From contig CANQVV010000002.1 of assembly GCA_947627385.1 (NCBI GenBank), positions 1-43,927 on the forward strand: a DNA stretch of 43,927 nucleotides, read 5' to 3'. The DNA is from an uncultured Bacilli bacterium. Lineage in GTDB: Bacteria > Bacillota_I > Bacilli_A > RF39 > UBA660. This document shows positions 544-34,738 of the stretch, piece after piece; the first letter of the stretch is position 1; each line of letters starts with the position of its first letter. The translations under genes and the position numbers were made by a program. The notes under the pieces are model-generated. The model searched no databases. It was not told the DNA's origin and saw only the letters and a program-made list of their open reading frames with translations.

Positions 544-1917
544 ATGCAAGTAAATGAAAAGCATAAGAAAATCATCTTAATAGTATTAGGTATTGTTATA
601 GTCCTACTTATTTTACTTTTTGCAATTAAGGGATGTTCTAAGAAAGAATATGAAATAACTTTTGATACTAATGGTGGTGGCAATATTAGTACAGCAAAAG
701 TTCAAAAAGATGGTAAAATTGTGAAGCCAACAGATCCAACTAAGGATGGTTATGTATTTGATGGTTGGTATTATAATGATGAATTATTTGATTTTAATAC
801 TAAAATAACAGATGATATGATTTTAGAAGCTAAGTGGATAAAAGCTGAGGCAGTTATGGGCATTAGTTTAGATTTAAAGGAATTATCTTTAAAACCTAAT
901 TCTTCTCATACCTTAGTAGTTACTATTACACCAGAAAATGCTCAAAATAAAAAAGTGTTATGGTCTAGTAGTGATGAAGATATAGTAACAGTTGATGAAA
1001 ATGGTAAATTAAAAGCTTTAAAAAATGGCAAGGCCACAATTACAGTAACAACCGAAGATGGAAAGTATAAAGCTACTTGTGAAGTAACAGTTACCAGTGA
1101 TATTGTAAGTGTTACTAGTGTAACAATTAAAGGTGCTAGTGAGGTATTAGTGGGAAAAACAATTAAATTAACTGCTGATATTAAACCAAATGAAGCCTCA
1201 GACAAAAGTGTTAAGTGGAAAAGTAGTGATTCTAAAATTGCCAGTGTTGATAAAAATGGTAATGTTAAAGGTTTAAAAAGTGGAAAAGTAACAATTACGG
1301 TTACAACTAATGATGGAAATAAAACAGCCAAGAAAGATATAACTATTAAAGAAAATTCTAATCCAAATCCAATTCCATCAAATCCAAATTCAGGTGAAAG
1401 TAGTAATCCCACTCCAACTACTCCAAGTGAAGTTAAAGTTACTGGTGTATCATTAAATAAAGATAAATTAACTTTAAATGTAAATGAAAGTGATAATTTA
1501 AAAGCCACTATTACCCCAAGTAATGCTACCAATAAAGGATTAAAATGGCAAAGTAGTAATCCAAATGTTGTTAAAGTTGATGATAATGGTAAAGTAACTG
1601 CTTTAAGTGAAGGAACAGCGACAATAACAGTAACAACTATTGATGGCAATTATGAAGCAAAATGTGATGTTGTCGTAAGTTCAATATATAAAATTGAATT
1701 AAAAACACAATTTAATGATAATCAATTACCAGTTGGTTATAATGTTATAGTTTACAAAGATGGTAAAAAATTTACGGATTATAAAAATGTAATTTATAAA
1801 GGATTAGAAAAATATGATTATTTTTTATCTAGTGAGATTCAAAAAGTTGAAAAAAATATAACTTTAACTTTAAAAGATGGTAAAACGATAAATTTACAAT
1901 TTACGATTGTTAATTAG
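544..1917 (+). CDS. Membrane-anchored surface protein with one Flg_new (Listeria-Bacteroides/InlB B-type) repeat and three Big_2 Ig-like domains
   Basis: N-terminal TM/signal anchor (IILIVLGIVIVLLILLFAI). YEITFDTNGGG...DGYVFDGWYYND..FDFNTKITDDMILEAKW is a typical Flg_new repeat. Three ~80-aa units follow with ...TITPENA.NKKV.W.SSD..IVTVDENGK..ALK.G.ATITVTT.DG (nt ~856-1693). SD aaggag lies upstream. Confidence 0.8.
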   Translation: MQVNEKHKKIILIVLGIVIVLLILLFAIKGCSKKEYEITFDTNGGGNISTAKVQKDGKIVKPTDPTKDGYVFDGWYYNDELFDFNTKITDDMILEAKWIKAEAVMGISLDLKELSLKPNSSHTLVVTITPENAQNKKVLWSSSDEDIVTVDENGKLKALKNGKATITVTTEDGKYKATCEVTVTSDIVSVTSVTIKGASEVLVGKTIKLTADIKPNEASDKSVKWKSSDSKIASVDKNGNVKGLKSGKVTITVTTNDGNKTAKKDITIKENSNPNPIPSNPNSGESSNPTPTTPSEVKVTGVSLNKDKLTLNVNESDNLKATITPSNATNKGLKWQSSNPNVVKVDDNGKVTALSEGTATITVTTIDGNYEAKCDVVVSSIYKIELKTQFNDNQLPVGYNVIVYKDGKKFTDYKNVIYKGLEKYDYFLSSEIQKVEKNITLTLKDGKTINLQFTIVN

Positions 1918-1931
1918 AAAGGAAGTAAAGA

Positions 1932-4841
1932 ATGAAAAAAATTAGTAAATATATATTATTAGTATTAGTAGCATTGTTAATTAATTTAACTCCTACTATG
2001 GCCAAAGAAATTAATTTAAAAACGTTGGGTGATTTAGTTTTAGAACAAGAACCAAATGCTACATCGTTTTATATTATTGGTAAATATGTTTTTACAGATC
2101 AATATGTAAAAAATTATTCTTTAAATACTAAGGATATTATGTTATCTGCACGTAGTATTAAAGTAAATACAGAAACAGATGGTGAAGTAAAAAGTTCGCC
2201 AATATATGATAAAATGAATATTTATACAGTATCAAAATATAGTGATGGCTGGAAATTTAATGATAATTTAATAGGTTCTCCAAAGCCACAAGATGATATG
2301 TTAGTAGATATAAAATATATTGATTATAGTCTTATAAAAGATGTTTATACAGTTATTTTTGTAGATGATAAAAATGCCGATATAAGAAAGCAAGAAGTTA
2401 TTTCTGGGGAAAAAGTAACTGCACCAAGTGTTGAAGTTGAAAAAGGGTATACTCTTGAATGGCATAAATGTAATAATGATAATTGTTCATCATTGGAAGA
2501 GGATGCTTTTGATTTTAATACAGAAATTACATCAGATATTAAATTAAAACAAGTTTTAGTTGGTGATGTTTATAAGTTAACATTTGAAGATGATAAACTT
2601 GAAGGTGGAAAACAAGAATTTTCTTATACTTATCCTAATGTAGTACCAAGTGATCATCAAAATTTAAAACCTAGTGATAAAGAAGGATATACTTTTAAAT
2701 ATTGGTATGATGTAGCAGTAGGTGAAGATACTGAATTTGATTTTGAACAAAAATTAACTCAAAATGTTACTTTAAAAGCAAAATGGCAAATTGAAACATA
2801 TACCGTTACTTTTATCAATGAAAGTAGTAGTGAAGAGAAAACTGTTGAATATAATCACACAGTAGAAATGCCAACTGAACCTCAAAGAAAAGGTTTTACA
2901 TTTGTTGGCTGGTTTAAATGTAGTGATGATGAGTGTAATGTCTTAGAAGAAACAGCATTTGATTTTGATACACCAATTAAAGCCAATATTAAATTAAAGG
3001 CTAAATGGACTGAAAAACAACGTATTGTTAAATTCAAAGGAATGATTGATGATGTTGAAAATAATCAATTCGTTCAAGGTAAAGATACAGTAGTATTAAA
3101 TTCTGACTATAAGTTAACAACGGAACAAATACCAAATACAAATCAAACTGGTTATGAGTTTTTAGGCTGGTTTGATGAAAAACATCCTAATACTGAAATA
3201 AAAATTCTTACTGATCGAATTTTTACCGATGAAGTTACTACAATAATTGGCAAATGGAAAGCAAATCGATATACTGTTACATTTGATAGTGATGGTGGAA
3301 ATGAAATTGGTAAAAGAATAGTTAGTTATAATAGTCAAGTACAAACACCGGGAGAAGCTCATAAAAATGCTGAGGGAGACTATAACGGCTATGAATTTAT
3401 TGATTGGTTTAAATGTAGTGATGATGAGTGTAATGCCTTAGAAGAAACAGCATTTGATTTTAACACACCAATTACCGAAGATATTACATTAAAAGCAAAA
3501 TATGAAAAAATTGTATATACAAATAAGATAGCTAATAATTTTGTTGATTCTATAAATAATAAAGACTTTTCAGCAACAGTTCAACAAGAAGAAAACAAAA
3601 TTTCATTTAATATTATTAATAAAGATTTAGGATTACAAACTAATTACTCTAAGATAAAAAATGCATTAGAAAAAGCTGTAGAAGTTAAAAATGTTACTAA
3701 TATTACTATTGAATATAATGGTACTTCTAAAAAAACAATAACATTAACAAACGATTCAGATATAGATTTAGAATTAGTAAATTTATTTAAGGAAATAACT
3801 AATAAAAATTTTGAGCAAACAAAATTAGAAGATTTATATAATAAAAGTCTTAATATAACTATTAATTTAGCTGCTGGATATAAAAACGAAGAAAAAAATT
3901 CAGTTGATACATATACTGTTGACTTTATTACTAATTTTGTTAAAGTAAGTAATATTCAAGAATTAAAAGATAATTTAACTAGTGGTAAAGAAATAATTGT
4001 TGAAAATTGGGCAGGTGAAACAATAACTAAAACAATTTATATTGATCATGATGTAGTAATAGATTTCCGCAATACAACAGTAAAATCAGCAGTTACTGAT
4101 AGTAAATATACTTTTGTTATTAGAAGTGGTAAAAATGTTAGTATTAAAGATTTAAAATTAGAAATCGATGCTATCTTACCATCTGAGTATGATAAAGAGT
4201 TAAAAAAAGCTATAACTGAAAAAAATACTATTGGTATAAAAGTAGAAGATAATGCATCATTAACTGTTAATAATTTCAATGTTATTACTCATAAAAAGCC
4301 TGATAAAGATACATTTAAAATTGGAGAAGAAGATTTTGATTCAACTAAGGTAGCAATTAATGAAAATGCAGCAATTGAATTACATGGAACATTATATGGA
4401 AGCAATATTAATTATGATGCTGAAATATATGGTAGTCCAACCGTATTAGCTACTGAAAATGCTATAATGGATTTACGAGGATTAAGTAAATCAACTTATA
4501 TTTATAATGTAAATAGAACAGATAACAAAGCAAAAGGTTCATCTGATAGATTTGACAAAGTTGAAGGATTTATTCATTATTATAAAGAGTATAATAATTC
4601 TTATATAACATTTGTCTTTTATTCAACATCTACACCACAAGCAGTATTTGCATTATTATATAATGAAAATATAATTATTCCAAAAGTATTCCAAGAAGGT
4701 GGAGATTTATATATGATAGATGGTAAACCTCTTCAAAAATGGAATTCAAGAAATTATAGTGGCTCTAAAACAACAGATGAATTAGCAAATGAAAAAATAA
4801 AAAATCATGAAACAGTTTATTTATATGCAAAATATGAATAA
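1932..4841 (+). CDS. Secreted multi-Flg_new-repeat (InlB B-repeat-containing) protein with a large uncharacterised C-terminal half
   Basis: Signal peptide (LVALLINLTPTMA|KE). At least five YT(V/L)TF...GY.F.GW...FDF.T.I..(D/N)I.LKAKW repeats occur between aa ~139 and 527. SD gaaaggaag lies upstream. The C-terminal ~440 aa have no motif I recognise. Confidence 0.8.
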   Translation: MKKISKYILLVLVALLINLTPTMAKEINLKTLGDLVLEQEPNATSFYIIGKYVFTDQYVKNYSLNTKDIMLSARSIKVNTETDGEVKSSPIYDKMNIYTVSKYSDGWKFNDNLIGSPKPQDDMLVDIKYIDYSLIKDVYTVIFVDDKNADIRKQEVISGEKVTAPSVEVEKGYTLEWHKCNNDNCSSLEEDAFDFNTEITSDIKLKQVLVGDVYKLTFEDDKLEGGKQEFSYTYPNVVPSDHQNLKPSDKEGYTFKYWYDVAVGEDTEFDFEQKLTQNVTLKAKWQIETYTVTFINESSSEEKTVEYNHTVEMPTEPQRKGFTFVGWFKCSDDECNVLEETAFDFDTPIKANIKLKAKWTEKQRIVKFKGMIDDVENNQFVQGKDTVVLNSDYKLTTEQIPNTNQTGYEFLGWFDEKHPNTEIKILTDRIFTDEVTTIIGKWKANRYTVTFDSDGGNEIGKRIVSYNSQVQTPGEAHKNAEGDYNGYEFIDWFKCSDDECNALEETAFDFNTPITEDITLKAKYEKIVYTNKIANNFVDSINNKDFSATVQQEENKISFNIINKDLGLQTNYSKIKNALEKAVEVKNVTNITIEYNGTSKKTITLTNDSDIDLELVNLFKEITNKNFEQTKLEDLYNKSLNITINLAAGYKNEEKNSVDTYTVDFITNFVKVSNIQELKDNLTSGKEIIVENWAGETITKTIYIDHDVVIDFRNTTVKSAVTDSKYTFVIRSGKNVSIKDLKLEIDAILPSEYDKELKKAITEKNTIGIKVEDNASLTVNNFNVITHKKPDKDTFKIGEEDFDSTKVAINENAAIELHGTLYGSNINYDAEIYGSPTVLATENAIMDLRGLSKSTYIYNVNRTDNKAKGSSDRFDKVEGFIHYYKEYNNSYITFVFYSTSTPQAVFALLYNENIIIPKVFQEGGDLYMIDGKPLQKWNSRNYSGSKTTDELANEKIKNHETVYLYAKYE

Positions 4842-6409: not shown

Positions 6410-9400
6410 ATGTCAAAATTAAAAAAAATAATTTATTCTTTTATATTTATGGGAATTTTTATTGGACTAGTTACAACTGTTAATATTTATTATAGTAATT
6501 TTAATAATGGAGATGTAAATGCTTTAAGTTTAGCTACTTTACCTTACAATTCAGATACTCATATCTATTTATCAGATATAGATTATAGAAGTGACTCCAC
6601 TGTTGAACCAGGTTACTATATAAGAAAAGATAAAAATGGTGAAGGTGGCTTTATATCTGTTAATACCAAAGATGGTAAGAAAACATTTATAAAAGGTATT
6701 TCTGCTTGGGCAACATCAAATGTTATTTATGATTTAACAAATTTAAATTATGATTATTTTGTCTCTTATGTTGGTGTTGATTCAAGTCAAATTAGTGATT
6801 ATTATAATAGTGGTGTACGCATTACTATTTATACTTCTGTGGATGGTGAAAATTGGAATCCAGCTTATACATCAGAAATAAAAAAAGGTTGGGATAATGC
6901 TGATAAAGTAGAAATCAGTTTAAAAAATGAAGATGGAAGTAAAGTAAATTATTTAAGATTATATGCTTATGAAAATGGTGATTCATGGTATAGTCAATGG
7001 CATGATGATGCTGTTTATGCAGATGCAATGTTAATTAAAGAAGGCTATCAAAATGAATTTAAAGAGTCAAATATTATTAAAACAGTTGCTGGCTATAATA
7101 ATGAATTAGAAAATTATAAAGATGCCATAAAAAATGGTGATTTTAGTAATTTAGAATCATATGAAAGTACTTTATTAAAAAAAGAGTTTGTTAAAAGAGC
7201 TAATTATGATATTTTACAAGCTTTAATTAATTATAGTAAAGATTATGAAAAAATTATTAATTGGTTATTTAATGATAAAGAAGCCCTAGAATTTTATGTT
7301 TTAGGCGGTGAAGCTGATGGTAATTATGGTACAAGTTTAAAAGTTTTAAATGAATTATATAATATGTATCACGAAGATTTTAATGATCCTGTAAATGGTA
7401 AGTTATATAAGAAAATGGCTATTACTTTATCATTAACTCACTCAACTAGTGTAGGATTGTGGGTAAGCGGCGCCCCAGAAGATCCAGATGATCCAAATGG
7501 TTCAAATGCATTTAGAAGATATCTTATTTATAAAGAATTATATTTAGCAAATAGATTAGATAATAATATATTTACAGATTTAACTGTTGAAGAAATGCGT
7601 TATGTTATGAATAATATTATTGATGATGAAGAAATAAAATGGTTAAATGATTATACCAAAAGAAATGATAAAGACAATATAGGTACTAAAACATTGTCAC
7701 AACCTAATTCAGCTAAAAATCCCTATACATACATAAATTATACATTTGATTATGATTATAGTAAGAGTATGTACTATGATGAAACCCAAAAAGATATATG
7801 GAATAATAAAGTTCATAATAATTCTGAAAAATTAGTTAATTATGGTTTTAAAAATTTTAATGTTACTTATAAAACTGGTTTTCCAAAATTATGGATAGTT
7901 TTTGAAGAAGGATCAGTTTGTGGTGGTTTATCAAAAACTGGTTCTAATATTCAAGGCGTTTATGGTGTACCATCAACTGTTATATCTCAACCTGGTCATG
8001 CTGCTTATATTTATATGTATAAAAATGCTAGTGGTGAGAAATTATGGACTATGTATAATGATGTTTCTGGCTGGGGTCAATCAGGTAAAACTGAAAAATT
8101 ATCAGTAAGAATGCCAAATGGTTGGGGTAGTGGCAATTATGTAGGAAGTTATCCTGCTACTTATATACTTTTAAGTCAATCAGCCTTAAATGAATATGAT
8201 ACTTATAAAAAGGCCGAAGAAATTATGATGACTACTGATTTATTTACAGATGATTATGTAGCAGTTAAAGGTATATATGAAAAAGCCTTAGAAGAAGAAA
8301 AAATTAATTTAGATGCTTATCTTGGTTTAATTGATACTTATAAAAAAATGAATGCAAGTGATATTGAATATCAAGAATTAGCAGTTAAAATTATGACAAA
8401 TTATAAATATTACCCATTACCAATGAATGATTTATTAGAGTTAATAATGACTAATATTAAAAGTAATGATATAAAAACAGATTTAAGTAATAAAAGAACA
8501 GCTTTATTAAATGAAGTAAAAGATTTAAAACAAGAAAAAGTAAGTGACTATAATCAAGTTCAAGCAGCTAGTCAAGTTGCTACATATCTTTTACAAGAAA
8601 ATAAACCTTTGGCTAAATTCTCATTTGAAGATAAGACAATAACTTTAAATGAAAAATATTTAAGCAATCCAACTTGGAAATATAGTGTTGATAGTAATAA
8701 TTTTAGTAAAGAAGTTTCTGGACTTACTTATACACTTACTGATGAAGAAGTAGATTTAATTCATGAAGAAACAGAAATCTTAATTAAAATTATTGGCCAA
8801 AATGATATTATTTATGAAATACCTATTGAAAAACCAATTGTTCCACCAGCCTTATCTTTTAGTGACATTGATAATAAAATTAATACAGAAATAAAAAATG
8901 CTCCAAAAGGATATAGTGCAGAGGCCTTAGAATATCGTCTTGAAGGCAGTGAAACTTGGCATAAATTAAGTGATGGCTATGATTTTTCTGGTAATAAAAA
9001 TGTTGAAATTAGAATTGGCCGTCACGGAGCATTTGTTGCTAGTGATTCAGTTATCTTTAATTTTACTGCTATTGGTGAAAGTGAAAAATATTTATATGTT
9101 AATGATTTAGGTATCAAAGATTTTTCATCAGAATATACTAAAACAGAAGATAATAAAGCCCAAAATGTTTTAGATAATAATAATGATACTTTATGGCATA
9201 CCGATTGGGATGGCAAAGATTATGATCGATATATTACTTTGGAAGTTAAAGGAGATCCTGTTTATATTACAGCCTTAGAATATGTTCCAAGACAAGGATC
9301 AACTAATGGAATTGTTACAAAAGCCCAAGTTTTAACAAGTATGGATGGTGAAAATTATACCGAAGTAGAAACTACAACTAATTTAGAGTGGGCTGTAAAT

Positions 9401-10144
9401 AATCAAAGTAAATATGCTATTTTTAAAAAGCCAATTAAAGCTAAATATGTTAGATTAAAGGCCTTAGAAAATGCTGGTGATGGTCGTAGTTTTATGAGTG
9501 CTGCCGAAATTAGATTGTTTGAAGATTCAACTGCAAAAATAATGCCAAGTGCCGAAGTTGAATATAGTACAAAGGAAAATACCACATTATCAGTTACAGC
9601 TAAATTAGTTAATAAAAATAAAGATTTTACTATAACTAGTGAAGGTGGCGATACTCATACATTTACAAAAAATGGTTCATTTACTTTTACTTTTGAAGAT
9701 GAGTATGGTAATACTGGTAGTGCAGTTGCAACAGTTACTTGGATAGTTAATAAAGAAGAAAATAATAAAACTGAAAATGTATCTGAGGAAAATAAAAATG
9801 TAGAAAATAATTCTTCTACAAATGAAAATAATAATAATACAAGCAATAATGTAACGAATTCAACAATAAATAAGCAAAATAGTAGTAGTGCATCTTCAAA
9901 TAATACAGATAATAGTAATAATGAAGAGAATATTGATGATAAGAATAATAATGAAAATATTATAGAAAATGAAAATCAAAATCAAAACAAAAATGAAGTA
10001 AATAATAATGAAGATTTAACATCTAATGAAGAAAATAATGGTTCAAGTAATTTAATTAGAAATATAATTATAATTACAATAGGAATTTTAATAGTCGGAG
10101 CCTTAATATTTGCTATAAAAACTTATCGTAATAATAGATATTAA
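6410..10144 (+). CDS. Large membrane-anchored surface protein: NPCBM-like domain, central transglutaminase-like Cys-His-Asp core (putative), F5/8 type C (discoidin) domain, Asn-rich stalk and C-terminal TM anchor
   Basis: N-terminal signal/TM. YLSDIDY...KGISAWATS.VIYDL....YFVSYVGVDSSQ...DDAVYADAMLI fits NPCBM. SVC(504)GG...GVPS...GH(530)AAYIYMY...WTMYND(551) fits a transglutaminase-like core. NVLDNNNDTLWHTDW...ALEYVPRQG...YVRLKALE...SAAEIRLFE fits discoidin. The tail is N/E-rich and ends IIIITIGILIVGALIFAIKTYRNNRY. Confidence 0.7.
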   Translation: MSKLKKIIYSFIFMGIFIGLVTTVNIYYSNFNNGDVNALSLATLPYNSDTHIYLSDIDYRSDSTVEPGYYIRKDKNGEGGFISVNTKDGKKTFIKGISAWATSNVIYDLTNLNYDYFVSYVGVDSSQISDYYNSGVRITIYTSVDGENWNPAYTSEIKKGWDNADKVEISLKNEDGSKVNYLRLYAYENGDSWYSQWHDDAVYADAMLIKEGYQNEFKESNIIKTVAGYNNELENYKDAIKNGDFSNLESYESTLLKKEFVKRANYDILQALINYSKDYEKIINWLFNDKEALEFYVLGGEADGNYGTSLKVLNELYNMYHEDFNDPVNGKLYKKMAITLSLTHSTSVGLWVSGAPEDPDDPNGSNAFRRYLIYKELYLANRLDNNIFTDLTVEEMRYVMNNIIDDEEIKWLNDYTKRNDKDNIGTKTLSQPNSAKNPYTYINYTFDYDYSKSMYYDETQKDIWNNKVHNNSEKLVNYGFKNFNVTYKTGFPKLWIVFEEGSVCGGLSKTGSNIQGVYGVPSTVISQPGHAAYIYMYKNASGEKLWTMYNDVSGWGQSGKTEKLSVRMPNGWGSGNYVGSYPATYILLSQSALNEYDTYKKAEEIMMTTDLFTDDYVAVKGIYEKALEEEKINLDAYLGLIDTYKKMNASDIEYQELAVKIMTNYKYYPLPMNDLLELIMTNIKSNDIKTDLSNKRTALLNEVKDLKQEKVSDYNQVQAASQVATYLLQENKPLAKFSFEDKTITLNEKYLSNPTWKYSVDSNNFSKEVSGLTYTLTDEEVDLIHEETEILIKIIGQNDIIYEIPIEKPIVPPALSFSDIDNKINTEIKNAPKGYSAEALEYRLEGSETWHKLSDGYDFSGNKNVEIRIGRHGAFVASDSVIFNFTAIGESEKYLYVNDLGIKDFSSEYTKTEDNKAQNVLDNNNDTLWHTDWDGKDYDRYITLEVKGDPVYITALEYVPRQGSTNGIVTKAQVLTSMDGENYTEVETTTNLEWAVNNQSKYAIFKKPIKAKYVRLKALENAGDGRSFMSAAEIRLFEDSTAKIMPSAEVEYSTKENTTLSVTAKLVNKNKDFTITSEGGDTHTFTKNGSFTFTFEDEYGNTGSAVATVTWIVNKEENNKTENVSEENKNVENNSSTNENNNNTSNNVTNSTINKQNSSSASSNNTDNSNNEENIDDKNNNENIIENENQNQNKNEVNNNEDLTSNEENNGSSNLIRNIIIITIGILIVGALIFAIKTYRNNRY

Positions 10145-10221: not shown

Positions 10222-10446
10222 TTGTAATTAAAAACGAAAGCAAGATACGTAATTTAAACTTATTTTCAAGAGAGTTAGTGGTAGGTGTGAACTAATAAAA
10301 GATGTTTAATTTATATCACTTGTTAGTTGGTTATTGGAAAGTGTTAGTATAATAACCCGTAGATGGCGTTAACAAATGAAGATGATAAATTCATAAATTA
10401 AGGTGGTACCACGGTAATGCGTCCTTATGTTTATGAATTTTTTTAT
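10222..10446 (+). promoter_or_regulatory. T-box riboswitch leader (Ile-specific) controlling ileS
   Basis: AGAGAG box at 10269-10274 and GGTGTGA distal-loop motif at 10284-10290. Candidate specifier ATC (Ile) at 10315-10317 is followed by A. The T-box sequence AATTAAGGTGGTACCACGG lies at 10396-10414, with UGGU to pair the tRNA NCCA end. The terminator is aaattcataaa (10387-10397) / tttatgaattt (10430-10440) plus a T-run, and it competes with the T-box antiterminator. Confidence 0.85.
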
Positions 10447-10461: not shown

Positions 10462-13400
10462 ATGAAAAAATTTGAAAGTTTAGATACCAGAGATGTATCA
10501 GTAGTGGAAAATACTATTTTAGAAAGATGGTTAAAAGATAAAATTTTAGATAAATGTATCCAAAATAGAGAAGATAAACCTTATTGGGTATTTTATGATG
10601 GACCTGCTACTGCTAATGGCATGCCAGGACTTCATCATATGGTAGCAAAATTTTTAAAAGATAGTTTTTGCAAATATAAAACAATGCAAGGTTATAAAGT
10701 TTTAAGAAAAGTTGGTTGGGATACTCATGGTCTTCCTGTTGAAGTTCAAGTAGAGAAGAAGTTAGGTTTTTCATCTAAATCGGATATTGAAAAATATGGT
10801 ATTAAGGAATTTAATGAAGAATGTAGGAAAGCTGTTTGGGAAAATGAAAAGGCCTTCTGTGATTTAACTAATAAAATGGGACAATTTATTGATTTGGAAA
10901 ATCGTTATATTACTTATGATAATAACTATATTGAAACTGAATGGTGGATTTTAAAGAAGTTCTTTGATGAAGGATTATTTTATGAAGGTAGTAAAATACT
11001 TCCTTATTGTCCAAGATGTGGTACAGGGCTAGCTTCTCACGAAGTTGCACAAGGCTACAAAGAGGTATCAGTTGATACGGTAATTGTTCCAATGAAGAAA
11101 AAAGATGAAGATGTTTACTTTTTAGTTTGGACAACAACTCCATGGACTCTTCTTGCCAATGTGGCTATATGCGTTAATCCTAATGAAAAATATATTAAAG
11201 TAGAATCAATGGGTTATAAATTTATAATTGCTAAGGCTCTTGCTAACAAAGTTTTAGGTGATGATTTTAAAGTAATAGAAGAATATCTAGGTAAAGATTT
11301 AGAAAATATTGAATATGAACAATTAATTCCTGAGTTAAAAGTAAATAAAAAAGCTTTCTTTGTTACTTGCGACACTTATGTAACAATGGAAGATGGTACT
11401 GGTATTGTTCATATTGCCCCTGCCTTTGGCGCTGATGATGCTATCGTTGGTAAAAATTATAATTTACCTTATTTAAATCCAGTTGGTGAAGATGGATGTT
11501 ACACCGAAGGGCCTTGGAAAGGAATGCTTGTTTTTGATGCTGATAAAGAAGTTATTAAATATTTAAAAGAAAATGATAAATTATTTAAAAAGCAAAAAAT
11601 GGTGCATAACTATCCACATTGTTGGCGTTGTAAAAGTCCTCTTTTATATTATTCTAAGCCATCATTCTATTTAGAAATTACTAAATTAAAAGATAAAATT
11701 GTCGAAAATAATAAAAAAGTTAATTGGTATCCATCATTTGTTGGTGAGAAAAGATTTGGCAATTGGCTAGAAAATTTAAATGATTGGGCAATATCTAGAA
11801 GTCGTTATTGGGGAACACCACTTCCTTTATGGAGGTGCACTTGTGGTCACGATGAAATGATTGGTTCAAGAGAAGAATTAGTCGAAAAATCTATTGAAAA
11901 AATTGATGCATCTATTGATTTGCATCGTCCTTATGTTGATGATGTTCATATTAAATGTCCAAAATGTGGAAAAGTTATGAATCGAGTTAAAGATGTAATC
12001 GATTGTTGGTTTGATTCAGGAGCAATGCCTTTTGCTCAATATCATTATCCATTTGAAAATATGGATGTATGGGAACATCAATTTCCAGCTGACTTCATTT
12101 GTGAAGGTATTGATCAAACAAGAGGTTGGTTTTATTCCCTTTTAGTTATTTCAACTTTCGTTAAAGGTGTATCACCATATAAAAATGTTTTAGTAAATGA
12201 ATTATTACTAGATAAAAATGGTCAAAAAATGCATAAAAGTAAAGGTAATGCAATTGAACCATTTACAATTATGCAAAAATATGGTGCTGATACAGTAAGA
12301 TGGTATCTTCCTTATGTATCCCCAGTTTGGACACCACTTAAATTTGATGAAGATGGTTTAAAAGAAGTATATTCTAAATTCTTCAATCCTTTAAAAAATA
12401 CTTATAATTTCTTTTCAATGTATGCTACAACTGATGGTATTGATATCGATAATTGTAATATCGAAGTTAGTAAAAGAGAAGAAATAGATAAATGGTTATT
12501 ATCAAGATATAATTCTCTTTTAAAAGTTGTAACCGAAGGCTATGAAGAATATGATTTAAATAAAGTAGTTAGAAATATCACTAATTTTGTATCTGATGAT
12601 TTATCTAACTGGTATATAAGACGTTGTCGTAATCGTTTCTGGGGAAGTACCTTAGATGATTCCAAAAAATCAGTATATATTACAACTTATGAAGTATTAG
12701 TAGGACTATCTAAAATAATTGCCCCAATAGTACCATTTATTAGTGAAGAAATTTATACTAAGTTAACAGATGAATATTCAGTTCATTTAGCAGATTATCC
12801 AAAATATGATGAATCATTAATAGATTTAGCCTTAGAAGAAAAAATGGATTATGTAAGAAATTTAATATCTCTTGGTCGTAATGTTAGAGAAGAAGCTAAA
12901 ATAAAGGTAAGAACACCTTTAAAAGAAGCTATTATTGAATCAAATGTTTATAATAAAATAACTGATTTAATTCCTCTAATTAGTGAAGAATTAAATGTTA
13001 AATCAATTATTGCCGAAGAAGATTTATCTAAGTATATGAATATTTCTTTAAAACCTAATTATAAAGAAGTAGGTAAAATATTTGGAGCTAAAATTAAAGA
13101 TTATGAAAAATTCTTAGAAAATATTAGTTTAGATGAGTTAAATAATAGAGAAGTTAAATTTGAAGATGTTATTATAACCAAAGAAATGTATGAAGTAAAA
13201 ATTTCTTCCAAAGAAGGATTTAATGTTGGTGTACTAGATAATTTATTCATTATTTTAAATACTACTTTAACGACTGATTTAATTAATGAAGGTCATGCCA
13301 GAGAATTTGTTTCTAAAATTCAAAATATGCGAAAGGTAAATGGTTATGATATTAGTGATCGGATAAAAATTTATTATAATAGTTTGGAATTTAAAGATAT

Positions 13401-13530
13401 AATAGAAGCATTTAGTAATTATATTAAAAATGAAACCTTAGCCAAAGAAATAATTTTTAAAGATATTGCCGATGAAGAAATAAATGTTAATGGTATTAAA
13501 GTAATAGTTACTATTGAAAAAACTAAATAG
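10462..13530 (+). CDS. ileS: Isoleucyl-tRNA synthetase, type 2 (IleRS2)
   Basis: 1022 aa. Motifs seen: WVFYDGPATANGMPGLHHM, WDTHGLPVE, CWRCKSPL, KMHKSKGN (KMSKS) and the DW.ISR.RYWGTP editing/CP region. Its length and lack of a C-terminal Zn-finger tail fit the type-2 enzyme. A T-box leader precedes it. Confidence 0.92.
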   Translation: MKKFESLDTRDVSVVENTILERWLKDKILDKCIQNREDKPYWVFYDGPATANGMPGLHHMVAKFLKDSFCKYKTMQGYKVLRKVGWDTHGLPVEVQVEKKLGFSSKSDIEKYGIKEFNEECRKAVWENEKAFCDLTNKMGQFIDLENRYITYDNNYIETEWWILKKFFDEGLFYEGSKILPYCPRCGTGLASHEVAQGYKEVSVDTVIVPMKKKDEDVYFLVWTTTPWTLLANVAICVNPNEKYIKVESMGYKFIIAKALANKVLGDDFKVIEEYLGKDLENIEYEQLIPELKVNKKAFFVTCDTYVTMEDGTGIVHIAPAFGADDAIVGKNYNLPYLNPVGEDGCYTEGPWKGMLVFDADKEVIKYLKENDKLFKKQKMVHNYPHCWRCKSPLLYYSKPSFYLEITKLKDKIVENNKKVNWYPSFVGEKRFGNWLENLNDWAISRSRYWGTPLPLWRCTCGHDEMIGSREELVEKSIEKIDASIDLHRPYVDDVHIKCPKCGKVMNRVKDVIDCWFDSGAMPFAQYHYPFENMDVWEHQFPADFICEGIDQTRGWFYSLLVISTFVKGVSPYKNVLVNELLLDKNGQKMHKSKGNAIEPFTIMQKYGADTVRWYLPYVSPVWTPLKFDEDGLKEVYSKFFNPLKNTYNFFSMYATTDGIDIDNCNIEVSKREEIDKWLLSRYNSLLKVVTEGYEEYDLNKVVRNITNFVSDDLSNWYIRRCRNRFWGSTLDDSKKSVYITTYEVLVGLSKIIAPIVPFISEEIYTKLTDEYSVHLADYPKYDESLIDLALEEKMDYVRNLISLGRNVREEAKIKVRTPLKEAIIESNVYNKITDLIPLISEELNVKSIIAEEDLSKYMNISLKPNYKEVGKIFGAKIKDYEKFLENISLDELNNREVKFEDVIITKEMYEVKISSKEGFNVGVLDNLFIILNTTLTTDLINEGHAREFVSKIQNMRKVNGYDISDRIKIYYNSLEFKDIIEAFSNYIKNETLAKEIIFKDIADEEINVNGIKVIVTIEKTK

Positions 13531-23157: not shown

Positions 23158-23388
23158 CTCTTTATAAATATATTATAATATTAACTAAAATATATAGCAA
23201 TAAGTCGTTGCAAATTTTCTTGACTTTGATTGACAATTTTGGCTATGTAAAACGAACAAAAAAATTTAAAAAATTTTTTAAAAATTAAAACAGCGGTAGA
23301 ATCTAATAAGAAATGTTTTTTTTACTAAAAAATTTAAAAAAATTAAAATGTTTGATTGACAAAACTAAAATTTTTTGCAAAAAAAACA

Positions 23389-23417
23389 TTGATAATTTTT
23401 TAAAGTAGTAAGATAAT
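23389..23417 (+). promoter_or_regulatory. Putative sigma-A promoter for the nrdD operon
   Basis: TTGATA (23389-23394), a 17-nt spacer, then GATAAT (23412-23417). SD ggagagg lies before the ATG at 23444. Confidence 0.5.
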
Positions 23418-23443
23418 AAATTTGTAACGGAGAGGTAGTAAAA

Positions 23444-25717
23444 ATGAAAGAAGATTTATTTAGTGACTTAGTAGTTGTTAAAAGAAGTGGTCAAAGAGTC
23501 CCTTTTAATGGCACTAAGATAGCAATAGCTATTAAAAAAGGTTTTGATAGTGTTTATGAAGAATATGATGAAAAAGTAGTTAATAAACTATATGAAAAAG
23601 TCTTAAAATATATTGAAAAAGAATATCAAGATCGAAAAACAATTGGTATTGAAGAAATTCAAGACATTATCGAAAATGAATTGAAAAAAAGTGATGAACA
23701 AGTTTATAAATCATTTTCTGAATATCGGGAAAGAAGAGCGGCATCAAGAGAGGCATTTGTTGTTAAACAACAACACAAATTTGTTAAAGCCATTGAATCC
23801 TTAGGATTAAAATCAGCCAAAGAAGAAAATGCTAAAAGAGAAAATGCCAATGTTGATGGTGATGGTCCAATGGGAACAATGCTTCATTTTGGTTCAACTG
23901 TGTCTCGTGAATTTGCCAAAGCTTATTTAATGGATGCTAAATATGCTAGGGCTCATGATGAAGGAGCTATTCATATTCATGATTTAGACTTCTTACCAAT
24001 GGGTACAACAACTTGTAATCAAATTGATTTAGATAAATTATTTGCTCATGGTTTTTCCACTGGTCATGGTTTTCTTAGAACTCCTAATGACATTATGAGT
24101 TATACCGCCTTAGCAGCTATATGTATTCAAGCCAATCAAAATGATCAACATGGTGGCCAAAGTATTCCAATGTTTGATTATTATATGGCCCCAGGGGTTA
24201 AGAAAACATTTAAAAAGCAATTAAAACAAATGTTATATGATTATCTAGATTTAGAAGGCTTTTTAGGAGAAATAAATTTTGATGAAGTTGTCGAAGAAAT
24301 AAATAAGTTAGAATCAATTGATTTAAATGTTAAAGAATATTTTGAAAAATATATAACTAGTGATAGATTAGAAGAATTATTTATTAAATCTTATGATAAA
24401 GCCTTAGCTAAAACTGATCGAATTACTTATCAAGCTATGGAAGCCTTTATCCATAATTTAAATACAATGCACAGTAGAGCCGGAGCCCAAGTACCATTTT
24501 CATCAGTTAATTTTGGAACAGATACTTCACCTGAGGGTAGAATGGTTATTAAAAATTTCTTATTAGCTACTGATGCAGGATTAGGTCAAGGAGAAACACC
24601 AATATTCCCAATTTCAATATTCAAACTAAAAGAAGGTGTTAGTTATAATAAAGAAGATCCTAATTATGATTTGTTTAAATTAGCTTGTAAAGTTTCAGCT
24701 AAAAGATTATTCCCTAACTTCTCATTCTTAGATTCTTCATTTAATAAACCTTATTTAAAAGATGGTGATCCTAAAACCGAAGTTGGCTATATGGGATGTC
24801 GTACCAGAGTTATAGGAAATATTTGTTATCCTGATAAACAAATAACTCCTGGTAGAGGTAATTTATCATTTACTACCATTAATTTACCAAGAATAGGTAT
24901 TAAACATGGTATTGCCTTAGGTGAACGTGATAAAGCTGATATGAAAGGCTTTTATGCCGAATTAGATGATTTATTAGATTTATGTAAAGGGCAACTTTTA
25001 CAAAGATTTGATATCCAATGTAGTAAAAATGTTAATAATTTTAAATTCTTACTTGGTTCTCATGTATGGCTTGATTCTGAAAAATTAGAACCTGGTCAAA
25101 AAATTAGAAAAATTCTTAAACATGGTACTTTATCTATTGGCTTTATTGGTCTTGCTGAATGTTTAAAAGCCCTTATTGGTGAACATCATGGTGAATCAGA
25201 AAAAGCGCAAAAGTTAGGTTTAGAAATTATAAAACATATGCGGGAAAAATGTGATGAATATTCCGAAGAATTAAAATTAAATTTTACTTGTCTTGCCACT
25301 CCTGCTGAGGGATTATCTGGAAGATTTGTGGGTATTGATCGTTCAATATATGGTAAACTTAAAGGTATAACTGATAGAGAATATTATACTAATTCATTCC
25401 ATGTACCAGTTTATTACCATACAACTATTCAACATAAATTAGAAGTTGAAGGAAAATATCATAAATTAACTAATGCTGGTCATATATCTTATATTGAGAT
25501 TGATGGTGATACTGCCAATAATGTAGAAGCATTTGAAAAAATTATTCGTATTATGCATGATTGTGATATTGGATATGGTGCTGTTAACCATCCAGTAGAT
25601 CGTGATCCAGTATGTGGTTATGTTGGTGTTATAAACAATGTTTGTCCAAGATGTGGTCGTCATGATTTTGAAGGGGTACCGGTTGAAACTTTAACGCATA
25701 TAGAATGTGATTGCTAA
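23444..25717 (+). CDS. nrdD: Anaerobic (class III) ribonucleoside-triphosphate reductase, large polypeptide lacking the glycyl-radical tail
   Basis: ATP-cone (VVKRSGQRVPFNGTKIAIAI), catalytic-core motifs (TTCNQIDL, GGQSIP, NFGTD, MGCRT, GNLSFTTINLPR) and a Zn-ribbon region (NHPVDRDPVCGY...VCPRCGRHD). The ORF ends ...THIECDC* with no R..GY glycyl-radical motif. Confidence 0.9.
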   Translation: MKEDLFSDLVVVKRSGQRVPFNGTKIAIAIKKGFDSVYEEYDEKVVNKLYEKVLKYIEKEYQDRKTIGIEEIQDIIENELKKSDEQVYKSFSEYRERRAASREAFVVKQQHKFVKAIESLGLKSAKEENAKRENANVDGDGPMGTMLHFGSTVSREFAKAYLMDAKYARAHDEGAIHIHDLDFLPMGTTTCNQIDLDKLFAHGFSTGHGFLRTPNDIMSYTALAAICIQANQNDQHGGQSIPMFDYYMAPGVKKTFKKQLKQMLYDYLDLEGFLGEINFDEVVEEINKLESIDLNVKEYFEKYITSDRLEELFIKSYDKALAKTDRITYQAMEAFIHNLNTMHSRAGAQVPFSSVNFGTDTSPEGRMVIKNFLLATDAGLGQGETPIFPISIFKLKEGVSYNKEDPNYDLFKLACKVSAKRLFPNFSFLDSSFNKPYLKDGDPKTEVGYMGCRTRVIGNICYPDKQITPGRGNLSFTTINLPRIGIKHGIALGERDKADMKGFYAELDDLLDLCKGQLLQRFDIQCSKNVNNFKFLLGSHVWLDSEKLEPGQKIRKILKHGTLSIGFIGLAECLKALIGEHHGESEKAQKLGLEIIKHMREKCDEYSEELKLNFTCLATPAEGLSGRFVGIDRSIYGKLKGITDREYYTNSFHVPVYYHTTIQHKLEVEGKYHKLTNAGHISYIEIDGDTANNVEAFEKIIRIMHDCDIGYGAVNHPVDRDPVCGYVGVINNVCPRCGRHDFEGVPVETLTHIECDC

Positions 25718-25746
25718 AATAAGTAATAAGGAGGAGGAAATATATT

Positions 25747-25923
25747 ATGGAAGCAGTTAAAAAAGAAAAAATGGTTGGTGAAGGAGTTGGATTTGAAAGA
25801 ATCCGTCGTATAACAGGTTATTTAGTAGGTACAACTGAAAGATTTAATAATGCTAAAAAGGCCGAAGAAAAAGACCGTGTTAAACACACTGGCCTAAATT
25901 GTCAAAAAAAAGTTGCAGAATAG
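25747..25923 (+). CDS. Free-standing 58-aa glycyl-radical peptide corresponding to the NrdD C-terminus (not in the ORF track)
   Basis: SD AAGGAGGAGG (25728-25737) precedes the ATG at 25747. The translation is MEAVKKEKMVGEGVGFERIRRITGYLVGTTERFNNAKKAEEKDRVKHTGLNCQKKVAE, with TAG at 25921-25923. RIRRITGYLVG...RFNNAKKAEEKDRVKH parallels the E. coli NrdD tail RRVCGYLGSPDARPFNAGKQEEVKRRVKH. Confidence 0.8.
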   Translation: MEAVKKEKMVGEGVGFERIRRITGYLVGTTERFNNAKKAEEKDRVKHTGLNCQKKVAE

Positions 25924-25931
25924 GCTAAATT

Positions 25932-26486
25932 ATGACAATTAGATTAGCAGCACCTCTTCAAAGAGATAGTGTTGTTGATGGTTATGGTGTAAGGACAGTT
26001 ATTTGGACACAAGGTTGTTCGCATAATTGTCCTTTTTGCCAAAATCCTCAAACACATGATTTTGATGGTGGCAAAGAAGTTGAACTTAAAGAGATATTTG
26101 AAGAACTTAAAACTCTAAAAGATCAAGATGGTATCACATTAAGTGGAGGTGATCCTTTATTTCAAATTGAACCTATTACGGAGATTGCTAAATATGCTAA
26201 ACATTTAGGTTTAAATGTTTGGTGCTATACAGGTTTTACTTATGAAAAAATATTAGAATTTGCCCAAGATAAACCAATATATTTAGAATTTTTAAAATAT
26301 ATAGATGTTTTAGTTGATGGTAAATTTGAAATTGCTAAAAAGGATTTAACATTATTGTTTAGAGGTTCAAGTAATCAAAGACTTATTGATGTTCCCGCAA
26401 CTTTGAAACAAAATAAAGTAATCATAATACCTGAAAGTGATGGTATTATAGATAACTTTAAAAATAAAAATAAATTATACATTTAG
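25932..26486 (+). CDS. nrdG: Anaerobic ribonucleotide reductase activating protein (radical SAM)
   Basis: CSHNCPFCQNP (a CX3CX2C radical-SAM cluster), GITLSGGDPL and its position immediately after nrdD. Confidence 0.9.
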   Translation: MTIRLAAPLQRDSVVDGYGVRTVIWTQGCSHNCPFCQNPQTHDFDGGKEVELKEIFEELKTLKDQDGITLSGGDPLFQIEPITEIAKYAKHLGLNVWCYTGFTYEKILEFAQDKPIYLEFLKYIDVLVDGKFEIAKKDLTLLFRGSSNQRLIDVPATLKQNKVIIIPESDGIIDNFKNKNKLYI

Positions 26487-34213: not shown

Positions 34214-34738
34214 ATGAATAACGTTCAAAGAGCAAGATGTATAATTGAAAATTTTAATAAAAACTATCGTCCTAGTCCTTGTTGTTGTATTGCTCAACAA
34301 AATGTTGTTCCAGGTAATATGACATTACAAATAGGTACAGTTACAACCGGAGCACCTGGTAGCGCCGCAGCTGCAAGTATTACAGGAGTAGCTCCTAATT
34401 TCTTTTTAAATTTAACTATTCCACAAGGAGCTACCGGTCCAACAGGTCCAGCAGGTTTACAAGGAGAAGTAGGAGCCACTGGTCCAACAGGTCCAGCAGG
34501 TTTACAAGGAGAAGTAGGAGCCACTGGTCCAACAGGTCCAACAGGTTTACAAGGTGAAATCGGAGCCACTGGTCCAACAGGTTTACAAGGTGAAATCGGA
34601 GCTACCGGTCCAACAGGTCCAACAGGTCCACAAGGAGAAATCGGAGCTACTGGTCCAACAGGTCCAACAGGTCCACAAGGAGAAATCGGAGCCACTGGTC
34701 CAACAGGTCCAACAGGTCCAGCCGGAGCCGCAGCTTAG
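34214..34738 (+). CDS. Collagen-like triple-helix repeat protein (BclA-type spore-surface glycoprotein candidate)
   Basis: A 71-aa N-terminal region (contains PCCC and [33 protein letters not shown]) followed by 34 uninterrupted G-X-Y triplets ([15 protein letters not shown]...), ending GPAGAAA*. SD gggagggg lies upstream. Confidence 0.85.
34427..34735 (+). repeat. Seven tandem copies of a 45-bp (one 36-bp) unit encoding GATGPTGP(A/T)G(L/P)QGE(V/I)
   Basis: The direct tandem repetition is visible in both the DNA and the translation. It also explains the spurious ORFs in other frames and on the other strand. Confidence 0.9.

Follow-up and report, generated by a model that had tools for sequence, protein, structure and literature searches.

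The nrdD locus

We analyzed a 43,927-nt stretch of DNA from an uncultured Bacilli bacterium (assembly GCA_947627385.1, contig CANQVV010000002.1, positions 1 to 43,927), referred to below as the window, with emphasis on its class III ribonucleotide reductase (RNR) genes. In this locus, the catalytic chain and the glycyl-radical loop of the enzyme are specified by two successive open reading frames (ORFs), followed by the gene for the activase. All features described for this locus lie on the forward strand. The first gene, nrdD (23444–25717), encodes a large subunit of 757 aa that includes an ATP-cone (aa 10–99; Pfam ATP-cone, 55 bits) and the class III RNR catalytic barrel (aa 133–742), which contains Cys191, Cys452, Asn473 and Glu622. 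These assignments come from Pfam and NCBIfam profiles and from the alignment to P. copri NrdD (8P23). The zinc-ribbon half of the glycyl-radical domain (H716–G738, HPVDRDPVCGYVGVINNVCPRCG, 25589–25657) is kept on the large subunit. It is followed by a 16-aa tail, FEGVPVETLTHIECDC (25667–25714), delineated by MAFFT and hhalign comparisons with the glycyl-radical segment. The nrdD product ends in ...CPRCGRHDFEGVPVETLTHIECDC (in longer form, ...NHPVDRDPVCGYVGVINNVCPRCGRHDFEGVPVETLTHIECDC), after which comes a TAA stop codon (25715–25717).

The stop codon and a 29-nt spacer (together 25715–25746) separate nrdD from the second gene, which has its own Shine-Dalgarno site, AAGGAGGAGG (25728–25737), within the spacer. 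This small-subunit ORF (25747–25923) starts with ATG at 25747 and encodes a 58-aa protein, MEAVKKEKMVGEGVGFERIRRITGYLVGTTERFNNAKKAEEKDRVKHTGLNCQKKVAE, corresponding to the glycyl-radical loop and the C-terminal helix of NrdD. Its conserved core spans aa 11–47 (nt 25777–25887), and the codon for Gly24, the counterpart of P. copri Gly711, is at 25816–25818. The small ORF and nrdD are in different reading frames, and stop codons occur between them in all three forward frames. A preliminary description of the locus had already noted this arrangement and had argued that no single indel could re-fuse the two ORFs. On recheck, its coordinates, stop codon, Shine-Dalgarno site, start codon and frames were all exact.

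The third gene, nrdG (25932–26486), starts 8 nt beyond the stop codon of the small ORF and encodes a radical S-adenosylmethionine activase of 184 aa (NCBIfam TIGR02491, 157 bits, cutoff 126). A promoter/terminator scan found no signal exceeding the shuffled background and no terminator-like site between 23100 and 26700. Inspection of positions 23158–23443 by eye gave no obvious NrdR box, and no Rfam family matched within the nrdD region. The nrdD gene, the small gene and nrdG form one cluster, which is probably a single operon.

The large subunit is a class III RNR lacking the radical glycine

The catalytic core belongs to class III RNRs (NrdD), as curated models were matched above their cutoffs. 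The large ORF scored 992 bits against the NCBIfam equivalog PRK07111 (cutoff 764), covering model positions 4–715 of 746, and 559 bits against TIGR02487 (cutoff 326); it also matched Pfam NRDD with 615 bits. The roles of the active-site residues in P. copri NrdD have been described (PMC11226230). By alignment to 8P23, we read C452, C191, N473 and E622 as the equivalents of P. copri Cys416, Cys171, Asn435 and Glu581, assuming that the chain numbering of 8P23 runs about 4 ahead of that used in the paper (an inferred +4 offset). Cys452 sits in the thiyl loop, within the YMGCRTR motif. The first three of these residues are invariant across 30 homologues and make up the Cys/Cys/Asn active site of formate-type NrdDs. 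The 120 closest homologues of the large subunit are all 753–765 aa long and 77–91% identical to it; one of these is named 'anaerobic ribonucleoside triphosphate reductase [Bacilli bacterium]'. The cognate activase, NrdG, is encoded nearby, and this synteny is conserved.

The alignment with 8P23 extends up to the end of the zinc ribbon (chain position ~708), the ribbon itself being aligned with chain positions ~680–706 (NRCLDCGY...CPKCG). In the window protein the ribbon is present as DPVC...CPRC, with three Cys and one Asp rather than four Cys at its putative metal site. The first Cys of the usual CxxC...CxxC pattern is replaced by Asp, giving DxxC (DRDPVCGY; D721–C724, 25604–25615). DxxC is found in 47 of the 58 split-type but also in 10 of the 51 fused representatives described below, indicating that the Asp ligand either predates the split or is independent of it.

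A single-chain NrdD carries the R-x-x-G-Y motif at its own C-terminus. The large ORF has no such motif anywhere; its stop codon falls 20 residues past CPRC without a Gly-Tyr, and the motif (RRITGY) resides on the separate 58-aa ORF. Since there is no Gly-Tyr after the zinc ribbon, the large subunit cannot form a radical of its own.

The small subunit corresponds to the glycyl-radical loop

In ordinary NrdDs, the glycine loop and the C-terminal helix make up the last 35–40 residues of the same chain. Profile searches with RNR and glycyl-radical models, which the preliminary description had proposed for both ORFs, assigned the two of them to NrdD over complementary model ranges. The small ORF matched positions 711–744 of PRK07111 and positions 533–562 of the 562 in Pfam NRDD (32.7 bits, gathering cutoff 26.2), leaving a clean break between the two ORFs at PRK07111 position ~711–715. 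In the alignment with 8P23, residues 16–49 of the small subunit correspond to chain positions 707–740 (~703–736 in the numbering of the paper): IDKLQRITGYLVGTTDRWNSGKLAELHDRVTH. Accordingly, Gly24 is aligned with P. copri Gly711, Tyr25 with Tyr712 and Arg32 with Arg719. The P. copri glycyl-radical domain (residues 676–739) consists of a zinc site, a buried Gly711 loop next to Cys416, and a helix (723–730) with a tail; the Gly711 loop has been characterized by electron paramagnetic resonance and cryo-electron microscopy (PMC11226230). The alignments thus place the break within the glycyl-radical domain, with the ribbon remaining on the barrel side and the loop and the helix supplied in trans.

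The core of the small gene is under purifying selection. Across loci, its 37 residues show 82% amino-acid identity as opposed to 40% identity at third codon positions, which are nearly saturated, and dN/dS is ~0.10. We found no dedicated family for the small ORF among its NCBIfam, Pfam and PHROG matches, all of which were NrdD models, although absence from these collections is no proof that the peptide has never been noted elsewhere. Few of its homologues carry any name in their source records, and those that do are called 'hypothetical protein'. Because the small genes are nameless or hypothetical and the large genes look truncated, annotation pipelines may misjudge the RNR status of many gut metagenome-assembled genomes (MAGs).

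We also observed that several small proteins, those of loci L002, L008, L014, L019, L053 and L061, have Cys pairs at their C-termini (CSC, CCEN, CEKC, CDC, CCG). The Bacilli-type tails of large subunits likewise end in Cys pairs (CDC, CCE, CGC, CCGR), which in the window are C755-D-C757 (25706–25714). The pairs on the two subunits might act together as a metal clasp between them or as a redox pair.

AlphaFold2 (AF2) was used with a diverse alignment to model the two pieces as a serial fusion. The resulting model had a mean predicted local distance difference test score (pLDDT) of 86 and a predicted template modeling score of 0.81. The junction (747–770) was disordered and the small core had moderate confidence (58–83). 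It matched 8P23 chain B, the longer model with 715 residues, over 811 columns, and the shorter chains over ~711 columns. The model is consistent with canonical docking of the glycine loop. A run of the concatenated pieces with only close homologues (mean pLDDT 60, C-terminus <50) was uninformative and was set aside.

The split is conserved across many genomes

We searched 5.8 billion proteins with the 58-mer and examined the best 120 matches. All of these were free-standing proteins of 51–75 aa with an almost invariant core. A scan of one genome per GTDB species gave at least 598 confirmed stretches, and the best 80 loci were kept. All 80 are split, the radical motif being located in a stop-to-stop segment of 52–167 codons. 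An intact upstream large ORF (>600 codons) was recovered in 77 of the 80. Within these 77 loci, the small gene is in relative frame 0, 1 or 2 in 20, 30 and 27 cases, respectively; the median gap between the large ORF and the small gene is 31 nt (range, -1 to 469 nt); the start codon is ATG in 75; and a Shine-Dalgarno-like motif is present in every one. In 62 of the 80 loci, the small gene is followed by nrdG at a distance of no more than 150 nt. The stop codon, the Shine-Dalgarno-like motif and the small ORF are therefore kept in related genomes and are not peculiar to the one analyzed here, which answers the question of conservation raised in the preliminary description.

These data bear on the possibility that the break stems from an error in assembly or sequencing, or from recent pseudogenization, in a gene that is, or ancestrally was, fused. 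Indel errors do occur in such assemblies, as two MAG loci (L009 and L027) have large ORFs fragmented by frameshifts. However, the 141-nt junction (25660–25800) is identical in five independent assemblies, with a sixth, short contig agreeing over the 73 overlapping nt, and the exact 58-aa protein is found on contigs of independent runs and assemblies. A junction closed in all three frames, an architecture shared by 80 of 80 species loci with varying spacers and frames, purifying selection on the small gene and a large ORF scoring above a curated equivalog cutoff all speak against error or decay as well. Taken together, the shared junction, the uniformly split loci and the purifying selection rule out assembly error and recent decay, and we assign this explanation a negligible probability.

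Another explanation is that the two ORFs are rejoined during expression by programmed frameshifting, readthrough, ribosomal bypass, RNA splicing or protein trans-splicing. In its favor, group I introns and inteins are known interruptions of nrdD in phages (PMC3653736), and many relatives have inteins elsewhere in the gene. Yet the variable frame and gap argue strongly against any recoding that requires a fixed frame relation: the spacer is 29 nt here and anywhere from -1 to 469 nt in other loci, and all three frames are well represented. Moreover, each small gene has its own Shine-Dalgarno-like motif, and nearly all start with ATG. The features of an intron or intein split were likewise not found at the break, considering the 29-nt spacer, the short and variable junction flanks with no obvious intein block, and the lack of an Rfam match in the nrdD region. 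Rejoining is in our view very improbable.

The carriers are mostly gut-derived Firmicutes MAGs, with record titles that name Bacilli, 'Tenericutes'/Mycoplasmatota, Erysipelotrichaceae, Oscillospiraceae, Acutalibacteraceae, Lachnospiraceae and Butyricicoccus, among others. The split also occurs in some cultured strains, namely Allofournierella massiliensis DSM 100451, Scatolibacter rhodanostii Marseille-P3890 and bacterium 1XD42-1. We further classified the best 150 large-subunit representatives at 50% identity, taking as split-type those in which the zinc ribbon is followed by a 20–120-aa tail without a glycine motif. This gave 58 split-type, 51 fused and 41 fragmentary or other sequences. One cluster member (P0123, 480 aa) turned out to be an unrelated protein, a clustering artefact, and was discarded. 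As judged from these sequences, the split layout is the mark of a large NrdD clade of gut Firmicutes and some phages.

Many split-type representatives (e.g., P0136–P0169) are as long as 900–1778 aa, and 41 of the 58 exceed 860 aa. In the long ones, the match to the window protein breaks at about residue 450–453, in the thiyl-cysteine loop. In Eggerthella phage EL753P1 (OP172808.1), an isolated phage with a split-type nrdD (locus L081, 1691–5152; tail ...CPQCHRKEFEAVPEEYRDMVDEIRKSGMR), an insertion (within 1691–4573) is located exactly at AYMGC|...|CRTRV, and this position at the catalytic Cys is typical of an intein. The phage nrdD is followed by a 102-aa ORF and then by a small gene for the glycine loop, in which the frame changes by one base (...GEGVGFERIRRI* / TTGYLTGSADRWNDAKKAELRDRVKHGK); the pieces are labeled 'hypothetical protein' in GenBank. 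The frame break may be a sequencing error, a frameshift or decay.

Two Desulfovibrionaceae MAG contigs (L041, 1020–1139; L076, 4001–4117) also encode the conserved small glycine-loop protein. The retrieved DNA around these two genes contains neither nrdD nor nrdG; the neighbors are an Amidase_2 protein in L041 and a FIST-GGDEF-HD protein in L076. These could be orphan 'cartridges', or else mis-binned or mobile DNA. A separate set of NrdD-like proteins of 660–713 aa (P0184, P0187, P0217, P0221, P0241, P0246, P0251, P0252, P0271, P0273 and P0277) aligns over nearly the whole core and ends just past the last core strand, without the zinc ribbon and without the glycine loop. These proteins may have been truncated or split in a second way, or they may be a non-RNR paralogue.

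Origin of the two-gene arrangement

The preliminary description had proposed that a duplication or insertion created the split and that the tail of the large subunit could be a decayed relic of the glycyl-radical segment. Both ideas gain support from sequence comparisons. In the nearest fused relatives, such as P0134 (59% identical) and P0276, the zinc ribbon runs directly into the radical motif: CPxCGR-x-E-x-[DE]-G-V-x-F-E-R-I-R-R-I-T-G-Y. In split genes, the start of this segment is kept on both pieces, as GR-x-x-G-E-G-V-x-x-E-x-L... in the large-subunit tails and as ...V-G-E-G-V-G-F-E-R-I-R-R-I-T-G-Y in the small proteins. The window tail reads as a truncated copy of the segment start (compare GEGVGFERIRRITGY), ending in ECDC exactly where T-G-Y would be expected. 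In a global MAFFT alignment, ...EDVPFERIRRI of the fused relatives falls on the window tail FEGVPVETLTHI, and their TGYLVGT... falls on the small ORF; hhalign places the tail in the same register. Other MAFFT block alignments that included the small peptides either misplaced the peptides on residues 626–705 or shifted the large C-termini, and were not used.

In several Clostridia-type loci (e.g., with the titles Hydrogenoanaerobacterium, Butyricicoccus and Oscillospiraceae), long tails are collinear with the whole radical segment; one example pairs the tail GEGVSVEVLRKLGVYRGNTDNCGYCGDINEEKDRTINAV with the small protein GEGVGFERIRRITGYLVGTVDRFNNAKRAEEHDRVKHGL. The hhalign comparison of long tails with small proteins gave E=2.3e-5 over 43 collinear columns. 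When short, medium and long tails were run independently, the E-values were 4.8e-5, 8.7e-3 and 9.8e-6, with one common register. With E-values of about 1e-5, the tails of the large subunits represent decayed glycyl-radical segments, in support of a duplication at the 3' end and later decay of the upstream copy.

Could the gene instead have been split by an insertion of foreign DNA, such as a mobile-element remnant with its target-site duplication? The short direct repeat (E-G-V-x-x-E) flanking the stop codon, the Shine-Dalgarno site and the start codon does resemble a target duplication. However, the long tails are homologous to the whole radical segment including its distal EExDR motif, well beyond a 6-residue repeat, which requires a duplication of ~40 codons, and a mobile element could not have been retained in a spacer so short and so variable. 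We therefore regard an insertion as a highly unlikely origin. At the DNA level, the 20-nt direct repeat pointed out earlier does have 13 of 20 identical positions, but such matches occur at 0.18% of placements, so that ~6 are expected in 60 x 60 placements. Being compatible with chance, the DNA repeat was dropped as evidence of duplication in favor of protein-level homology; the protein repeat is genuine, with E-G-V-x-x-E present in both pieces and conserved throughout the family.

The simplest history suggested by these comparisons is a tandem duplication of the nrdD 3' end followed by decay of the upstream copy. The last ~40 codons of nrdD would first have been duplicated in tandem. The downstream copy would then have gained or retained a start codon and become an independent gene, and the upstream copy would have lost its glycine and been progressively truncated. 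Its remnants would be the long pseudo-domains of many loci of the Clostridia type (e.g., Oscillospiraceae) and the short stubs, rich in Cys, of Bacilli, including the window. In a crude neighbor-joining tree, most split forms group in a single large clade, and a few fused sequences are nested in this clade or adjacent to it. One or more splits and re-fusions may lie behind this pattern; the flanking repeat would allow re-fusion by deletion.

Some long pseudo-domains have a G-Y in the register of the radical site (KIKGY, KLHGY, KLNGY), namely those of P0140, P0142, P0145, P0149, P0154, P0185, P0225 and L048, together with a conserved GNPDEEADR motif. The conserved motif and the G-Y suggest that the tail is under selection of its own in those lineages.

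Genomic context

The window itself is an ordinary Gram-positive chromosomal segment with gyrB, gyrA, ileS, polysaccharide genes and genes for MurC-like and MurD-like Mur ligases and a sortase-domain protein. Upstream of a class I aminoacyl-tRNA synthetase gene (10462–13530), which is probably ileS, there is a T-box leader at 10228–10429 (Rfam RF00230, 100.7 bits). Genes at 544–4841, 6410–10144 and 34214–34738 encode large surface-type proteins bearing Big_2 and Listeria-Bacteroides repeats, a protein of the NPCBM/F5_F8 type C kind and a small one made of collagen triple-helix repeats. Their presence fits a host-associated Gram-positive organism.

Comparison with known systems

To our knowledge, the radical glycine is on the catalytic chain in every glycyl radical enzyme studied so far. 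Benzylsuccinate synthase (alpha-beta-gamma) and 4-hydroxyphenylacetate decarboxylase (HpdBC) do combine a large glycyl radical subunit with small accessory subunits, but in these enzymes it is the large subunit that holds the radical glycine, the small ones being unrelated Fe-S proteins. Full-text literature searches returned no description of a two-piece NrdD or of a separately encoded glycine loop, in line with the preliminary description, whose author knew of no characterized obligate two-piece NrdD. The only 'split' RNRs found were phage nrdD genes interrupted by introns, inteins or endonuclease genes, and split class II RNRs.

Compared with canonical NrdD and NrdG (E. coli, T4, P. copri 8P23, S. 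thermophilus 9D3X, T. maritima 4U3E), the system described here has in common the core, the ATP-cone, the thiyl loop, the zinc ribbon, the adjacent activase and the glycine-loop sequence (QRITGYLVGTTDRWN vs RRITGYLVGTTERFN). It differs in the break of the chain, which comes after the zinc ribbon and before the glycine loop and so divides the glycyl-radical domain. It also has an extra decayed tail on the large subunit, a variable N-terminal leader on the small one, and Asp as the first zinc ligand. Interrupted phage nrdD genes (T4 sunY, Lactococcus phage 949, Clostridium phage c-st, Aeromonas phage phiAS4) likewise consist of more than one ORF (PMC3653736). In those cases, however, one chain is restored by RNA or protein splicing, or the fragmentation is lineage-specific and at other positions, whereas the locus described here lacks an intervening element and provides the second piece with a ribosome-binding site of its own. 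Split class II NrdJa/NrdJb (Pseudomonas aeruginosa, Thermus phage phiYS40) also has two consecutive ORFs with the C-terminal module second (PMC9669993, PMC3653736). Yet these proteins belong to another RNR class with B12 chemistry, and the second piece, NrdJb, is a large folded domain with a Cys pair and a zinc finger and is not the radical-bearing element.

The closest functional parallel is with the spare parts of pyruvate formate-lyase, GrcA/YfiD of E. coli and Y06I of phage T4, which are likewise small free-standing proteins with only the glycyl-radical loop. By analogy, the small subunit would be activated by the radical S-adenosylmethionine activase of its partner and inserted into the partner's barrel. 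By sequence it is not a member of the GrcA family, as it matched only NrdD models and gave no match to Pfam Gly_radical (PF01228) or to a GrcA model at E<=1; it is a free-standing loop nonetheless, with at least hundreds of free-standing homologues. It is also shorter (58 aa vs ~127 aa for GrcA/YfiD) and is encoded between nrdD and nrdG. Moreover, the partner of GrcA has its own glycine, which is replaced after oxidative cleavage, whereas the NrdD partner, in the window and in the short- and medium-tail classes, has none. Without a resident glycine in NrdD, the peptide would be needed constitutively and not as a replacement after cleavage. According to a 2026 review, spare-part proteins are known only for formate lyases (PMC13450708), and earlier work only speculated on spare parts for other enzymes (PMC8683613).

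This parallel raises the alternative that the small protein is an optional, GrcA-like spare part or regulator, with the cell relying on another RNR (a second nrdD, nrdJ or nrdAB) and the truncated NrdD being inactive or having some other role. Our view of the genome spans 44 kb, and the orphan small genes on the two Desulfovibrionaceae contigs indicate that the peptide need not be encoded next to a large subunit, both of which leave room for this alternative. Against it, every catalytic residue checked and the ATP-cone are kept in a highly conserved large ORF that is unable to form its own radical. Furthermore, the tight nrdD–small gene–nrdG synteny in most loci suggests that the three work together, and the scanned ORFs of the window included no further RNR gene. 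We consider an optional role improbable.

A putative two-piece class III RNR

The locus is an example of a well-known enzyme being encoded by two genes, in an arrangement that is real, conserved and widespread. Very probably, the single nrdD–small gene–nrdG cluster encodes a functional class III RNR made of two separately translated polypeptides, and the most likely form of the enzyme, as far as the sequences tell, would be an obligate heteromer with the radical on the small subunit. This reading builds on the observed anatomy of the genes, their conservation and selection, and the homology of the pieces to NrdD and of the tail to the radical segment. It agrees with the preliminary description, which had proposed a class III RNR divided into a catalytic polypeptide and a glycyl-radical peptide; the complementary profile coverage, the invariably split best loci and the purifying selection all favor that proposal.

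Several points weigh against it. Translation of the small ORF and formation of the complex are predictions from sequence. The putative zinc site would have to work with three Cys plus an Asp instead of four Cys. Fused P0134, P0135 and P0253 nest within or beside the split clade in the crude tree, and in lineages with KIKGY-type long tails the resident copy may have residual function. The AF2 model represents an artificial single chain, is driven by homology and has moderate confidence at the glycine loop, and so should not be taken as independent proof of docking. Finally, the RNR survey spans the 44-kb window, and another RNR or a second intact nrdD could be present elsewhere in the genome.

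If the two-piece enzyme works as proposed, its mechanism may be sketched by analogy with fused NrdDs and with GrcA/YfiD. NrdG would abstract a hydrogen from Gly24 on the free or loosely bound peptide, after which the glycine loop would dock into the barrel beside Cys452. The radical would shuttle from Gly24 to Cys452 to the substrate as in fused enzymes, and catalysis would proceed as usual with formate as the reductant (Asn473 type). With a separate loop, the domain would not need to swing out for activation. Oxygen cleaves the chain at the radical glycine, and in the two-piece enzyme the damage would be confined to a cheap, replaceable 6.5-kDa subunit. Limited oxygen damage is thus a plausible benefit of the split, although both the site of activation and the repair advantage are drawn from analogy. 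In a more tentative extension, which we consider possible but rather doubtful, the 58-aa protein would be a dissociable, sacrificial 'radical cartridge', activated by NrdG off the enzyme, inserted into a large subunit that never has a radical glycine of its own, and thrown away and replaced after cleavage by oxygen.

The field has openly asked whether enzymes beyond pyruvate formate-lyase have free-standing radical peptides. If the radical loop of these NrdDs is always supplied in trans, the question would be answered for an essential and widespread enzyme, ribonucleotide reductase. A two-piece NrdD, if confirmed, would offer a simple system for studying how an activase recognizes and activates the glycine loop, how the loop enters the barrel and how anaerobes limit the cost of oxygen damage. 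Should the cartridge idea also hold, a once-optional spare part would have become the sole radical carrier of an essential enzyme in a large clade of gut Firmicutes, with phages such as Eggerthella phage EL753P1 and some Desulfovibrionaceae carrying their own or orphan cartridges.

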